Part shown: positions 17,182 through 22,674 of the stretch, piece after piece
Layout of the letters: each line of letters begins with the position of its first letter
Position numbering within the stretch: position 1 is the stretch's first letter
UHGV virus genome: UHGV-0115960
DNA: 38,642 nt
DNA from: a virus
Strand: one strand, 5' to 3'
The notes under the pieces: model-generated
Told to the model about the DNA's origin: nothing
Database searches by the model: none
What the model saw: the letters and a program-made list of their open reading frames with translations, nothing else
Translations under genes and position numbers: made by a program

Positions 17182-18597
17182 TCAACCTACACCACAAGGA
17201 ATTGAGTAACTGGAATAGTCGGGTTGCGCAGCCGACTCCGGGCAATGCATACACATCATCAGCGCATCAGCCAGGTTAGGAGATGGAATACCGAGCTTCT
17301 GCTTCATTTCGACCTTAGTCATAAGCTCCAGCTTCCCGTTATTATTGAATTTGCGCTGAATCTGCGTCAGTTCTGCAAACAGCTTCTCCAGCATCTTCTC
17401 GCCTATTGCTTCTTTGTCGAAACTCAGCATGTCGTCGGGGTCTGCATACTCACCGTGGACAACCGCCCGATATGTCAGATACAGCCTGTCAGCCAGCGCG
17501 TAATAGAATTGCGCTCGCTTATTGCGGAACACATCGCCAATAGTGCGAACGTTGTCGCCCTGTACGACTTCATCAGCCCATGCTCCGGCCTGATACGGTG
17601 CATCTTCATCGAATGGCGATTCGCTGCCCTTGAACATCGTGGCGGTGATTTTCTTGCCGGAGAACGCTTCCGTTGTCTGTCTGCGTAGCCCGGCACCAAC
17701 ACCATCACCATCCCACAGGTAATGGTCAGCGCCGTCTTCAATCGCCAGCGAAGTAGCCCAGTCAGCACCCTCGTTGATGTCCATCAGCAGACCTTCGGCA
17801 ATGCGCTTAACAACCGAACCGTGGCGCGATGCATAACCTTTGGCATCCGGCCCTGTATCTGATGGGTCATGCGCAGAGACAACAGCACCTTTCGCTTTCC
17901 ATCCGAGTTTCTTGTGCGCATCGGTTGCGGCTTCAAGCCATTCACGTTTGATTATTGCCATATCACTTGCGCTTACTGGCTCACCAAGCCAGATGTGACG
18001 ATACAGTGTCGGATTTCTGCGTTTACACTCTTCCATCTCCAGACGGAGAACTTCAGGAAAGTGCGGGTTGTCGGTGTAGTTCACCGTCAGCAGACAAATA
18101 TCATCGGGAGGATTTACGACGAATCGCTGATAGGTATCGTCGAGGATGTTCTTAGGGTTAAAGCTCACCCATATTTCAGAGAACGGCTTACGGATGGTTG
18201 GTATCAGGATATCCCATGATTCCTTCGTTACCGCTTCCGCTTCCTCCACCCAGCAGATATCAATACCTTCTAGCGATTTAATCTTCGTCGGGTTGTTTTT
18301 GATGCCGTAGAACATGAACTCAGCATTCGTTCCGAGATGACGAATCATGGAACGCTGAATTTCAAACTCAGCCGAATACCCTTCACGCTCTATGGTGTCT
18401 TCAAGCAACCGGATTACCGAATCGCTGATACTGTTTTGCAGTTCACGAGCGCAGAGAATACGCACTGGCTGACGACGCGCCGCTTCAACAAGCAGCCTAG
18501 CAATTGCCCATGATTTACCGCTACCTCGACCGCCTTTGGCGACTTTGTAGCGATGCGCCTCAATGAACGGTTCAAAGATAGGATTAATCGAGGTCAT
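17182..18597 (-). CDS. Terminase large subunit
   Basis: Walker A KGGRGSGKSW near N-terminus; 471 aa; overlaps small terminase stop. Confidence 0.9.
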   Translation of the reverse strand: MTSINPIFEPFIEAHRYKVAKGGRGSGKSWAIARLLVEAARRQPVRILCARELQNSISDSVIRLLEDTIEREGYSAEFEIQRSMIRHLGTNAEFMFYGIKNNPTKIKSLEGIDICWVEEAEAVTKESWDILIPTIRKPFSEIWVSFNPKNILDDTYQRFVVNPPDDICLLTVNYTDNPHFPEVLRLEMEECKRRNPTLYRHIWLGEPVSASDMAIIKREWLEAATDAHKKLGWKAKGAVVSAHDPSDTGPDAKGYASRHGSVVKRIAEGLLMDINEGADWATSLAIEDGADHYLWDGDGVGAGLRRQTTEAFSGKKITATMFKGSESPFDEDAPYQAGAWADEVVQGDNVRTIGDVFRNKRAQFYYALADRLYLTYRAVVHGEYADPDDMLSFDKEAIGEKMLEKLFAELTQIQRKFNNNGKLELMTKVEMKQKLGIPSPNLADALMMCMHCPESAAQPDYSSYSIPCGVG

Positions 18598-19034
18598 TTT
18601 CCGAATAGAGTGCTCATCGGTGATGTTTCAATCTGAATTGCGCCGCCGTCTTTGCCTGTTAGCTCGTGATCAACCTTGTCGCGCCATTTATCCTTCTGTC
18701 GGTTCTTAAGCCAGAAAATGGCAGCGGTTGTATCAGGCGGGTAATACTTCTCAAGCGGAGTTTCGACAATTCTGTTTTCAATAACACGAATATCGATATC
18801 TGGAGCCACGAAGCCCATAGCGCGTTGATAAAGACGATCACTAACTTCTGCATCAGCGACGGCCTTACCCTTTTTTATGGACTCCGAAAACTTAGGATAA
18901 TCAAGCTTCCACTTGTTAATAGTTGACTCACTGACTTCAAAGAAATCAGCAAGTTCTGCATCGGTGTAGCCCAGCAAGCACAGTTTGCGTGCCTGTTCGG
19001 CATACGCCTCTTGATACTTTGTTGGGCGCGCCAT
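18594..19034 (-). CDS. Terminase small subunit (HTH DNA-binding)
   Basis: 146 aa immediately upstream of and overlapping large terminase; helix-turn-helix-like LGYTDAELADFFEVSESTINKW. Confidence 0.75.
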   Translation of the reverse strand: MARPTKYQEAYAEQARKLCLLGYTDAELADFFEVSESTINKWKLDYPKFSESIKKGKAVADAEVSDRLYQRAMGFVAPDIDIRVIENRIVETPLEKYYPPDTTAAIFWLKNRQKDKWRDKVDHELTGKDGGAIQIETSPMSTLFGK

Positions 19035-19036
19035 GT

Positions 19037-19279
19037 TTATGCTCCGGTGGTGAACAGGTCTAACGCTTCCTTCGATTTACGCACCGCTTCGATAGTGCGG
19101 GTCGTGATATCCGAATTAGCGCCGCCTGACTGGAAGTGAATTTTGAATAGCTCAAGCTTCAGCTCGTCAGTGCCAATGAACTGAAATGCTTCTTCTGCGG
19201 CTGCGTTCTGGTTCATGACCAGCTTGTAAATCTCTAACTGGAATTTCTGTTCTTCAGTCATGGGAATAATCTCTGCCAT
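19037..19279 (-). CDS. Hypothetical protein, 80 aa, upstream of terminase genes
   Basis: ATG with GGAG upstream; 2-nt spacing to small terminase start. Confidence 0.5.
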   Translation of the reverse strand: MAEIIPMTEEQKFQLEIYKLVMNQNAAAEEAFQFIGTDELKLELFKIHFQSGGANSDITTRTIEAVRKSKEALDLFTTGA

Positions 19280-19383
19280 TATTGGCTCCGTTTATCCGTT
19301 AAAAGGGATATCAGTTAAGTTATCCCGTGCAGGGTATAAGCCATTATCAAAGCCACTCTGTAGGGAATGGATTTTGTGATGGC

Positions 19384-19413
19384 AATAAAAAACCGCCCGT
19401 AGGCGGCAAAATT
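19384..19413 (-). terminator. Rho-independent terminator (minus strand) upstream of terminase block
   Basis: Reverse complement reads GCCGCCtacgGGCGG followed by TTTTTTATT. Confidence 0.6.
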
Positions 19414-19519
19414 AATGTTTCGTAATTGCGTCAGATCATTAACCATAGTTATTGTGTAGCTGCTTTGTGTCGTTGGGGTGAACGACGAAAAAGCGAACAA
19501 CATAATTAATGAGGTGACT

Positions 19520-20050
19520 ATGGAAGTCGAAAAAATGCTGGTCAAGGACCGGAAGTGTGGCTCTTGCTCAGTTTGCTGTGTTTCTTTGGCAATAGATGAG
19601 CCCGAATTGAAAAAAAAGCATGCGGTACCGTGTACCTATCTCAGGCCTCAGGGTGGTTGCTCGATCTATGCTGATCGACCGTCATTGTGCAAAACATGGC
19701 ACTGCGGATGGCGGATGATGCCTTTCATGGGGCCTGCGTTAAGACCAGATCGGTCCAATCTCCTAGTGCGCTTCACGGGAGAATGTTGGATTTTCGGTGA
19801 TGCTGACGACCAAAGGGAATCTGCATTAATGAATAATGATACTTTAAACGCAATGAGCGCTCTGGTCTCGCGTAATATGAAAGTTTCAGTATCAGTTCCA
19901 ACTAAGCCGGGTTATTGCGACGCTGAACATGTCATCAATGATGATATTATGGAGGCGGTAAAAGAACGGTCTTTGTCAAAAGTTAAAGAAATAATTTGGA
20001 CAGTAATTTGCCGGTGCAAAGTCTCCGCGACCAACCCGCGAAAGCAATAA
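19520..20050 (+). CDS. YkgJ-family cysteine-cluster protein (putative metal-binding), antisense to late operon
   Basis: Motif CGSCSVCC plus further Cys (C...C...C..HC) typical of the CxxCxxCC family; ATG at 19520 with GAGGTG upstream (track start 19478 is further upstream). Confidence 0.55.
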   Translation: MEVEKMLVKDRKCGSCSVCCVSLAIDEPELKKKHAVPCTYLRPQGGCSIYADRPSLCKTWHCGWRMMPFMGPALRPDRSNLLVRFTGECWIFGDADDQRESALMNNDTLNAMSALVSRNMKVSVSVPTKPGYCDAEHVINDDIMEAVKERSLSKVKEIIWTVICRCKVSATNPRKQ

Positions 20051-20059
20051 ATTAAGCTG

Positions 20060-20088
20060 AACGCCAAATTTATCCGAAATTTGGCGTT
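20060..20088. terminator. Hairpin terminator after the YkgJ-like gene
   Basis: Perfect inverted repeat AACGCCAAATTT atccg AAATTTGGCGTT. Confidence 0.6.
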
Positions 20089-20340
20089 ACATTAATTCAA
20101 ATGTCGGCATAGCCAACCAATCATCTGGTAAGCATGTGTTTTCGACAGACTGCATTAACCGCTCATCACTTCGACATGTGAAAGTTTCTTTGTGACCGAG
20201 CGAGCCCTGTGAAGAATTAGGGCAATCCATATCTTCACCTGTTTTTTTCACTAGTGCGTTATTAATCTCAATCATTGTGAGTTCCAGACCTCAGACTAAT
20301 TAATTTCAACCCCACTATTGCGAGGCCCAGTTTTCATTAG

Positions 20341-20529
<189 letters not shown>

Positions 20530-20629
20530 TAAGGCTGGAGGTTCATCTTTCAGTGGCTGCCAGTGTTATTTCCCCACTTTCTGGCTTGGGTTGTTTCGTG
20601 GTACTGCTGTTAATTAGTGAGTCCGGGGA

Positions 20630-21115
20630 TTATTTCAGTTCGTTACCAGGCATTTCTTTTAGCTCTTTCAAATGACAACGATTGAGACTAAACCACTCCC
20701 CGTGCGACCTATAGTTGTAATATTTTTGGTGCAATTTGGTTTCAAGCTCTCTATCGGCCGGAATCTTTGCAATTAGATTTAGCTTCCCACCACTCATGCG
20801 AGATATCTCTGAAATCCGTTTATTAACCCTGCGACTAAACCCTATTTTTGTTAGCCCACTATCTTCAGCATGCAGAACGTACACATATGATTTTTGCGAA
20901 GCACTGGGTGCGACTTTGTTGTAATTAATCATGTCAAACATGAAGCCTTGCTTTAGCAAAGTTTCAAAAAAGATAGAATTAACACACCCATTCCTTCTCA
21001 GCTCTGCACTTAGCTTGTCAATTTCCTCTATGATGTCGCCAGACCCCTTTCCACTTATAAGAAAATCTTGGTACATGCGACCAATTCTTGAGGTAATTTC
21101 AACAAAGTTATTCAT
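20630..21115 (-). CDS. T5orf172 / GIY-YIG-like domain protein (161 aa)
   Basis: C-terminal SYVYVLHAEDSGLTKIGFSRRVNKRISEI...ELETKLHQKYYNYRSHGEWFSL matches the T5orf172 signature; ATG with AAGGTAA upstream; AT-rich. Confidence 0.6.
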   Translation of the reverse strand: MNNFVEITSRIGRMYQDFLISGKGSGDIIEEIDKLSAELRRNGCVNSIFFETLLKQGFMFDMINYNKVAPSASQKSYVYVLHAEDSGLTKIGFSRRVNKRISEISRMSGGKLNLIAKIPADRELETKLHQKYYNYRSHGEWFSLNRCHLKELKEMPGNELK

Positions 21116-21459
21116 AGCGTTTACCTTTTAGAAAGATGAGCCTGTTCGCACAGAAAAGCCGTCCCCGAGATGGTCGCCACCATATACGGCAATTCTCAGG
21201 CTCAGCTTTCTGAAAGACTCGGGATTGTTACGCGCTGCGATGCGCGGTTTACTGCAGATGTAAAAAAGCCCCGCGAATACGAGGCTAAATCCTGGTATTT
21301 GTAATGACTGGCTCTTATCTCAACGCAGCCCCTTACCGCGCGCCAGATGCTCAATATCAAGCATCAGCAATGAGATGTTTAATCTGGATTTACTCCAGAA
21401 GTGATCACCACCCTGTCTACAGAGCCAGATGTGAAGGATGATGAGTAAAATTATCGCTA

Positions 21460-21897
21460 TCATCGAAGGCATTGCGTCCTGATGTACTCCTGCAGGTAGT
21501 TAACCTGCGCGGTTATCCTGTCGATTCCACTTCGGAGACGGTAATAATTGAGTTCAGCATCTGCTGTAAGTCTTGGGCTTTCTCCATCGCCCATGCTGCT
21601 GGCTCCGGTCGTTGACTTTGCACAGGTGGCGGCGACTTGCAGGCGTTTACGACCAGCAGAAACATCAGCACGGAGACTTTCGATAGTCGCGTTAGCATCA
21701 GCAAGCTCCTTTGTGTATCTGGCGTCGAGTTCTGCTACATCATGTTGCCGCTTCTGCATATCAGCGATAATAGATGTGGCTTTATCGCGCTGTTCTTTAT
21801 AGGTAATGGCGTTATCACGGTAATGATTAACAGCCCATGACAGGCAGACGATGATGCAGATAACCAGAGCGGAGATAATCGCGGTTACTCTGCTCAT
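21460..21897 (-). CDS. Rz: Rz i-spanin
   Basis: N-terminus [34 protein letters not shown] matches recalled lambda Rz. Confidence 0.9.
21513..21704 (-). CDS. Rz1: Rz1 o-spanin lipoprotein embedded in +1 frame of Rz
   Basis: Lipobox LVVNAC followed by proline-rich [12 protein letters not shown]; fully nested in Rz as in lambda. Confidence 0.8.
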
Positions 21898-22370
21898 ACC
21901 TCAATCTCTCTGACCGTTCCGCCAGCCTCTTTGAATTTTGCAATCAGGCTGTCAGCCTTATGCTCGAACTGACCATAACCAGCCCCCGGCAGTGAAGCCC
22001 AGATATTGCTGCAACGGTCGATAGCCTGACGGATATCACCGCGATCAATCATCGGCAAAGCGCCACGCTCCTTAATCTGCTGCAGCGCAACAGCGTCCTG
22101 GCTTTTGGGAGAGAAGTCTTTCAGTCCAAGCTGCTTGCGGTAAGCATCCCACCAGCGTGAAAGAAGCTGATAACGTCCGGCGGCTGTTGATTTAAGTTTC
22201 GGGTTTAGCGTGACAAGTTTGCGAGGATGATCGGAGTAATCAGTAAACAGTTCACCACCAACAATAACATCATAACCGTGGTTACGTGTCGGTTGTCGCC
22301 CGTTATCCGTTCCCTCTGACCACGCCAACATATCGAGGAAAGCTTTACGCTGAGGATTAAGATTTTGCAT
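21894..22370 (-). CDS. R: Endolysin, lambda R-type lytic transglycosylase
   Basis: 158 aa near-identical to recalled lambda R ([20 protein letters not shown]...). Confidence 0.95.
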
Positions 22371-22674
22371 TTTTCACCCCTGTCAGTCGTTCCCAGAAGT
22401 ACGTCAGTGCAACCGAACCCATCGCACCACTAATCCCCGCTGTCGCGAGAATCATGTAAATACTGAATCCACTTTCGATGCTGATCAGGCCACCAATAAC
22501 ACCGGTGAATCCTGATACCACTATCTGAGCCAGAGCATTTATCCAACTCCACGTTGCTTTACTCTGCTTCACATCTATCAGGTAGCGGACTAGACCGCCC
22601 CAACCTGCGATGATCAGCAAAACGAGCCAGAACGCTCCGGCAAGGCTCTCTTTTTCGTGCATATGAATAGCCAA
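22357..22674 (-). CDS. Holin (three predicted transmembrane segments)
   Basis: 105 aa, three hydrophobic helices, immediately upstream of and overlapping endolysin. Confidence 0.8.
   Translation of the reverse strand: MAIHMHEKESLAGAFWLVLLIIAGWGGLVRYLIDVKQSKATWSWINALAQIVVSGFTGVIGGLISIESGFSIYMILATAGISGAMGSVALTYFWERLTGVKNAKS

Follow-up and report, generated by a model that had tools for sequence, protein, structure and literature searches.

A predicted T5orf172/GIY-YIG nuclease gene and its hairpin leader in a cargo slot between the lysis and packaging genes of virus genome UHGV-0115960

The virus genome UHGV-0115960, a stretch of 38,642 nucleotides (nt) that is called the window here, carries a gene for a protein of 161 amino acids (aa) between its lysis and terminase genes. 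The protein is 100% identical (tblastn) to gp68 of Salmonella phage epsilon34 (YP_002533529.1), and we use that name for it. Within this P22-like prophage the gene lies in an exchangeable position, slot A, in which the lysis genes, a rho-independent terminator, a hairpin that pairs with the Shine-Dalgarno (SD) sequence, a cargo open reading frame (ORF), a conserved spacer and the terminase genes follow one another. In the explanation we prefer, gp68, a member of the T5orf172/MUG113 branch within the GIY-YIG superfamily, would be catalytically active as a single-site DNA endonuclease and would be a non-essential cargo of an expression slot that is conserved in lambdoid late operons. It would be made late only, through Q-antitermination, with its translation held down by the hairpin, and would cut DNA of related phages or prophages that share the cell and have a different slot allele. 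Recombinational repair through the conserved flanks would then copy gp68 in, resulting in homing-like spread or inter-phage competition. We put the probability of this full scenario at roughly 0.4. Its starting points are the gene, its domains, fold and conserved catalytic residues, the slot architecture, the RNA structure, the sporadic distribution and a tract of low divergence, all of which were observed. Nuclease activity, late and limited expression, the target and homing are proposed from them. The unit consists of the following features.

20630 to 21115, minus strand: gp68 coding sequence, 161 aa, ATG to stop with the stop codon included (ORF list, tblastn, phrog_4284, purifying selection)
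20912 to 21115, minus strand: N-terminal domain, residues 1-68, with helices at 3-21, 25-41 and 47-68
20654 to 20887, minus strand: predicted T5orf172/MUG113 (GIY-YIG superfamily) nuclease domain, residues 77-154
21124 to 21217, minus strand: structured leader, a hairpin of ~94 nt with 31 base pairs (RNA fold, RNAalifold, covariance model)
21261 to 21286, minus strand: rho-independent terminator that separates the lysis genes from the slot (stem 21267-21286, then a T-run; terminator scan)
20472 to 20629, minus strand: conserved spacer, the right-hand boundary of slot A, with a 29-aa ORF remnant (20457-20546; blastn, P22G sequence)

The gp68 gene and its known copies

The initial annotation, made from the letters of the window, had described an AT-rich gene of 161 codons between Rz and the terminase genes, and it proved accurate in every particular; its interpretation is supported as well. 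The ORF occupies exactly positions 20630-21115 (minus strand) among co-oriented late genes, with Rz upstream and DUF2560, terS and terL downstream, and its GC content is 0.41 compared with 0.48-0.52 in these neighbours. It is a real gene. The PHROGs family phrog_4284, with function listed as unknown, covers its full length at 1.4e-75, and when 1.84 billion representatives were searched with its profile, 15,416 relatives reached E ≤ 1e-3, the majority aligning over residues ~70-155 only; the match is therefore far beyond chance. A second family, phrog_875, matches only residues 2-60 (1.4e-6). Comparison with 61%-identical homologues gave a nonsynonymous rate (pN) of ~0.27 and a synonymous rate (pS) of at least 0.7, and both halves of the gene are under purifying selection.

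The same protein is encoded by phages g341c (gp64) and NM-3 and, as the 161-aa protein WP_001058931.1, by an E. coli prophage, and always stands between gp67/Rz and DUF2560/terminase. The epsilon34 and window proteins do not differ, and the window adds a 1.1-kb insert further downstream (slot B, described below). Dozens of further identical copies are present in IMG/VR. Among complete E. coli genomes 58 of 5426 contain the gene, in all of them as a single chromosomal copy with the product name 'GIY-YIG nuclease family protein', and it is found in 5 of the ~389 phage records that have this region. HK106 gp64 (YP_007151734.1) and Chlobot CDS0088 are full-length coliphage relatives with 31-33% identity (tblastn); they share the two-domain architecture, and that identity extends over residues 26-155. 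These highly diverged alleles belong to HK97-like siphoviruses, and their DNA resembles the window in the flanks only (84-95%). RefSeq names both epsilon34 gp68 and HK106 gp64 'GIY-YIG nuclease family protein'. Reference phages and genomes thus already include the gene in their annotation, with a known kind of domain and in a known hot spot. Gene 68 is not mentioned in the passages covered of the epsilon34 genome paper (PMC2629481), and we found no experimental work on the gp68 protein in the literature.

Two records from these searches need comment. NZ_CP026085.1 (locus L012, 1456191-1462676) is a 4.83-Mb genome labelled 'E. coli DH5alpha' that contains a P22-like prophage with the gp68 gene. 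Such a prophage is unexpected in DH5alpha; the label may be wrong, or the strain may have picked up a lysogen. The 165-aa sequence P0014 from a Logan contig combines a YbcO-like part, an Rz-like part and the last ~45 residues of gp68; it was excluded as a likely assembly or frameshift chimera from a single contig.

The C-terminal domain

The T5orf172 signature that had been noticed in the C-terminal half was recovered in a hidden Markov model search above the gathering thresholds of two Pfam families, MUG113 (PF13455; E = 4.2e-13, 50.1 bits against a cut-off of 22.3, residues 90-154) and T5orf172 (PF10544; E = 1.1e-9, 39.2 bits against a cut-off of 20, residues 77-154). The domain also has the fold expected for it, the beta-beta-alpha-beta-alpha core of the GIY-YIG superfamily, and weak sequence-profile matches in the PDB were to GIY-YIG proteins only, aligned over the GIY/YIG/Arg block. 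Residue conservation was read from an alignment of 86 of the profile relatives with 30-65% identity to gp68. Y79, K90, G92, R100, E125, H129, E140 and W141 are invariant in these relatives, I91, R136, G139 and F142 are nearly so, and the conserved block G139-E-W-F142 closes the motif set. Y79 and R100 represent the Tyr of the first motif ('GIY') and the catalytic Arg of helix 1; they align with Y6 and R27 of I-TevI (a weak hhalign match) and also with BH0048 and EndoII. The second motif ('YIG') lacks its Tyr, and Lys90 (K-I-G) aligns with I-TevI Y17.

Odn (Gp88), the origin-directed nuclease of Vibrio phage ICP1, is the sole T5orf172 protein whose nuclease activity has been demonstrated. The gp68 profile aligned with Odn at a probability of 90.5% in hhalign, pairing Y79 with Y127, K90 with K138, R100 with R148, E125 with E180 and H129 with H184. 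The two proteins have the T5orf172 core in common, in which Y, K-[IV]-G, R, E and H correspond, and differ in the rest: identity is ~23% over 64 columns, and Odn has 226 aa compared with 161 in gp68. The invariant E125 takes the place of the catalytic Glu (E75 in I-TevI, E180 in Odn), and the E180A variant of Odn is nuclease-dead in vitro and in vivo (PMC8263062). Because the active nuclease Odn also has Lys (K138) instead of the second Tyr, this replacement is a T5orf172 trait and not a sign of inactivity. The C-terminal part of gp68 is accordingly best described as a predicted GIY-YIG-fold nuclease domain with an intact active site, and gp68 is likely to be an active nuclease.

The N-terminal domain

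The first 75 residues, left unassigned by the initial annotation, had no match in Pfam or NCBIfam. This part is family-specific, net acidic and fast-evolving, and has no invariant residue and no conserved Cys/His pattern. No zinc-finger, NUMOD or helix-turn-helix (HTH) match was found in gp68 in Pfam or NCBIfam. Fold searches with the N-terminal domain returned generic helical matches only, a profile search with this domain alone, made for other architectures, found just truncated copies of the same gene, and tblastn against phages gave identical genes and noise. Designed pentatricopeptide-repeat proteins (PDB 4wsl and others, E = 3e-6) were rejected as homologues. The match covers residues 17-56 (window ~20948-21067), a single helix-turn-helix stretch against one designed repeat, and is probably just a likeness of helical hairpins; its E-value is inflated because it sums over 8-10 identical repeats, each of which contributes ~5 bits with an i-Evalue above 200. 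The three-helix domain is probably involved in oligomerisation or in recognition of a partner or target.

The specificity of Odn comes from a RepA_N-like N-terminal domain that was acquired from its target satellite (PMC8263062); the three-helix domain of gp68 is unrelated to it. Another explanation can be built on this comparison, in which gp68 is a conflict nuclease against a satellite such as a phage-inducible chromosomal island (PICI), an unrelated superinfecting phage, a plasmid or, late in infection, host DNA, the N-terminal domain sees a foreign protein or structure, and there is no homing. Odn, the only biochemically characterised T5orf172 protein, works in this way and has all core residues in common with gp68. 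The fast evolution of the N-terminal domain without invariant residues is what would be expected of a recognition module in an arms race, and conflict genes occur among the other cargos of the region, such as the Tad2-like anti-Thoeris domain of Huey at the same place. However, no target could be identified, the N-terminal domain is unlike known replication, DNA-binding or sensor domains, and strictly late expression would leave little time to stop a competitor. We regard a conflict nuclease without homing as possible but unlikely.

Slot A and its alternative cargos

The initial annotation had called the position behind the lysis genes a known accessory hot spot of P22-like phages, and related phages indeed have other cargos there, encoding Rha or KilA-N proteins and swapped from start codon to stop codon. 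Compared with CUS-3 and phiv205-1, which carry a Phage_pRha + ORF11CD3 cargo, homology stops at 20620-20632, around the stop codon, and resumes at 21108-21111, close to the ATG (blastn; 20632 and 21111 for CUS-3 alone). In a multiple alignment all cargo versions share the leader, the SD and ATGAA, and then diverge at once. HK106 has flanks of 84% and 95% identity around its 31%-identical gp68 allele, with no DNA similarity within the ORF (blastn). In Sf6, 115 bp replace window positions 20610-21298 and the slot is effectively empty. Homologues with 100%, 61%, 49% and 31% identity all follow Rz directly and precede the terminase, although the phages differ in their holins, Q proteins and terminases. 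Slot A of Huey (L006, 997-1497) encodes a protein with a Tad2-like (Thoeris anti-defence 2) domain (1.7e-24), labelled 'anti-CRISPR' in the record; the lysis-terminase region therefore also collects counter-defence genes.

The spacer on the far side of the cargo is 95-97% identical in epsilon34, CUS-3, Sf6, HK106 and Chlobot, and Huey was also used to set its boundaries (blastn). It matches the 3' two-thirds of the P22 small noncoding RNA (sncRNA) 'P22G' (sequence from PMC13397905). The epsilon34 record describes the truncated spacer ORF as 'similar to N-terminus of ST64T orf118'.

From the annotation of CUS-3 and from P0010, a gp68 homologue of 183 aa, it had seemed that the 5' end of Rha survives upstream of gp68 as a 19-codon upstream ORF. 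This was rejected because the same SD and ATG serve all cargos in the multiple alignment. The annotated starts of the CUS-3 Rha ORF (L004, 1308-1919) and of P0010 (L009, 5001-5552) lie 22-24 codons 5' of the conserved SD and ATG, so that these ORFs run through the hairpin, and both longer starts were probably mis-called.

The exchange of cargos also bears on the possibility that gp68 binds DNA or regulates without catalysis, as a protein of the Rha/KilA-N/Bro class, with the T5orf172 domain serving as a DNA-binding module and in the role that Rha and KilA-N proteins have in this slot. Its position is interchangeable with that of Rha (Phage_pRha + ORF11CD3) and KilA-N proteins behind the same leader. 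In P22, CUS-3, the Stx2 phages, HK620 and SPN3UB, these proteins have the identical slot, terminator, hairpin leader, SD and ATG. The C-terminal domain is also basic, with a net charge of about +7 as counted from the sequence, and there is a precedent in PLE CapR, a homing-endonuclease relative that turned into a repressor. The CapR precedent, however, concerns the zinc-finger domain and not the T5orf172 domain, and the invariance of Y79, R100, E125 and H129 among the 86 relatives would be unexpected after a loss of catalysis. The Rha and KilA-N proteins have no sequence or domain kinship with gp68, and contain winged-helix or KilA-N DNA-binding domains rather than a nuclease fold. No Phage_pRha, KilA-N or Bro-N domain was found in gp68 in Pfam, and the slot alone is common to them. 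A regulatory role of this kind is quite improbable.

The leader hairpin and expression

RNA folding of the 94 nt that separate the terminator from the ATG gave a hairpin with a z-score of -2.67. In its basal helix UCUUU is paired with AAAGG of the cargo SD (21124-21128). An alignment of 11 leaders (RNAalifold and pair counts) kept 97% of cells paired over the 31 pairs, of which 16 had compensatory changes. Slid controls for this alignment gave 42-56% paired and 0-5 compensatory pairs, and none of 500 shuffles reached the observed values. With 19 leaders, 97% pairing was kept and 20/31 pairs were compensatory; slid controls across the leader alignments had 37-56% paired. A covariance model placed the hairpin directly 5' of all full-length gp68 homologues with at least 49% identity, and HK106 has the same terminator, leader hairpin and downstream spacer around its gp64. 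The model did not find the hairpin upstream of distant relatives that have only the T5orf172 domain, nor in the Sf6, Huey and Chlobot loci. The leader is present in at least 163 phage records, including 73 Stx2a-converting phages, and occurs in phages of Escherichia, Salmonella, Klebsiella, Enterobacter, Erwinia and Hafnia, where it precedes Rha, KilA-N or T5orf172 ORFs. Rfam had no family for positions 19000-22000 at E ≤ 1. The hairpin is homologous to the P22 sncRNA 'P22F', an 89-nt RNA ending 6 nt before the rha start that was reported in 2026 with its function unexplained (PMC13397905).

A terminator is annotated at the homologous place in epsilon34 and HK106, and no promoter-like (sigma-70-like) site was found between the terminator and the gp68 ATG. 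From this arrangement and from lambdoid late-operon biology we infer that transcription of gp68 would come from Q-antiterminated late RNA polymerase. Because the basal helix pairs with the SD, translation of the cargo should be restrained. The combination of an upstream terminator with a sequestered ribosome-binding site matches the way in which free-standing homing endonuclease genes of phages are reportedly restrained (work of Gibb and Edgell on mobE and I-TevI). rha is known to be IHF-related; no IHF site (WATCAANNNNTTR, ≤1 mismatch) was found in positions 20400-21330.

The leader also bears on whether gp68 could be a defence or superinfection-exclusion nuclease that the prophage expresses in the lysogen, as a classical moron. 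No significant match was found among the PADLOC defence models, the best being a partial one to candidate PDC-S57 (E = 4e-4). A rho-independent terminator immediately precedes the gene, which is on the late strand and has no sigma-70-like promoter before its ATG. Its SD is paired within the conserved hairpin, and lytic-cycle operons use this leader for Rha and KilA-N cargos too. A prophage-defence role is not supported, and of the alternatives discussed we hold it to be the most improbable.

The low-divergence tract

The gp68 gene of the window is 99.6-100% identical at the nt level (0-2 mismatches in 486 nt) to those of epsilon34, NM-3 and an E. coli prophage (L001, L002, L012). The leader and the small ORF at 21320-21472 are nearly identical in this comparison, with 0-1 mismatch in 153 nt for the ORF. 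Identity is 95.6-97.5% in the spacer, DUF2560 and Rz (2.5-4.4% divergent) and 90% in the endolysin, and terS and holin are non-homologous. The pattern points to a tract that was transferred recently.

Homing compared with other forms of exchange

T5orf172 genes of phages are regarded as homing endonuclease genes (HEGs) that mostly lie beside terminase genes and whose domains recombine modularly (PMC10448857). gp68 would fit a mobile, self-promoting nuclease cassette in being sporadic among close relatives, at a fixed site with sharp boundaries, and less diverged than its flanks, and in its presumed late and restrained expression. Like the ICP1- and T5-type T5orf172 HEGs and like T4 Seg proteins and I-TevI, it has a terminal GIY-YIG-type domain and is a free-standing, sporadic gene beside the terminase. 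Unlike them, it has no CapR, DUF723 or DUF4397 zinc fingers and no NUMOD or HTH modules.

Several points weigh against a homing-like role. gp68 has no separate sequence-specific DNA-binding domain and instead carries the acidic three-helix domain, whereas in the survey by Barth et al. 87% of T5orf172 HEGs have CapR/DUF723/DUF4397 zinc fingers (PMC10448857). The canonical second Tyr is replaced by Lys90, although Odn shows the same change. The tract of low divergence extends over the small ORF 21320-21472, so it could be a plain recombination patch. ORF-exact joints and conserved flanks are equally a product of ordinary lambdoid mosaic recombination, and the same leader serves the non-nuclease cargos Rha and KilA-N; the slot features are therefore not specific for homing.

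A more far-reaching version would make the gp68 family a dedicated 'allele-replacement' nuclease of an undescribed, translationally gated lambdoid cargo slot that includes the Stx2a phages, with the leader as a cis-regulatory RNA that silences toxic cargo such as the nuclease, Rha or KilA-N until a specific late event. Rival alleles of the slot would be cut without a classical DNA-binding domain, so that the gene would spread itself in phage populations, and targeting might be achieved, for example, through dimerisation of the N-terminal domain or recognition of hairpin-forming DNA. This version is speculative and we think it rather improbable.

The gp68 gene itself adds little, being an annotated, sporadic accessory gene for a predicted nuclease of P22-like and HK97-like phages. 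If both nuclease and homing-like activity are true, temperate enterobacterial phages would have in gp68 their first described T5orf172 mobile nuclease, and the well-known mosaic joint of the lysis and packaging modules would gain a mechanism. The leader hairpin may matter more than gp68 and is most worth follow-up. With it the restraint of potentially toxic late accessory genes could be accounted for, and P22F would have a function.

Neighbouring genes and slot B

The features around the gp68 unit are listed below.

22357 to 22674, minus strand: holin, Phage_holin_3_3 (Pfam)
21894 to 22370, minus strand: endolysin-sized ORF
21460 to 21897, minus strand: Rz (Pfam Phage_lysis, 5e-36)
21320 to 21472: small ORF upstream of the slot
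19359 to 20471, no strand assigned: slot B, an insert of 1.1 kb, a neighbour of the gp68 unit and not part of it
20087 to 20275, minus strand: 62-aa ORF in slot B
19478 to 20050, plus strand: 190-aa Cys-rich ORF in slot B (weak Pfam CxxCxxCC match, 0.006; phrog_9155, 1.6e-16)
19037 to 19279, minus strand: DUF2560
18594 to 19034, minus strand: terS
17182 to 18597, minus strand: terL

Slot B lies between the spacer (20472-20629) and DUF2560. Its insert is lacking in epsilon34 and CUS-3, where 10 bp take its place, and the corresponding position in Huey (382-762) and Sf6 (L003, 547-927) encodes Phage_gp49_66 family proteins. Terminator-like hairpins bracket the 190-aa Cys-rich ORF. Positions 19360-20326 occur in just 4 of 5426 complete E. 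coli genomes. The right edge of the insert (~20391-20470, and also 20325-20470) is multi-copy, matching 3907 E. coli records at as many as 25 chromosomal or plasmid sites in one genome, and adjoins istB of the IS100/IS21 family in phage records. This edge looks like a remnant of an IS100/IS21 end that marks how the insert arrived.
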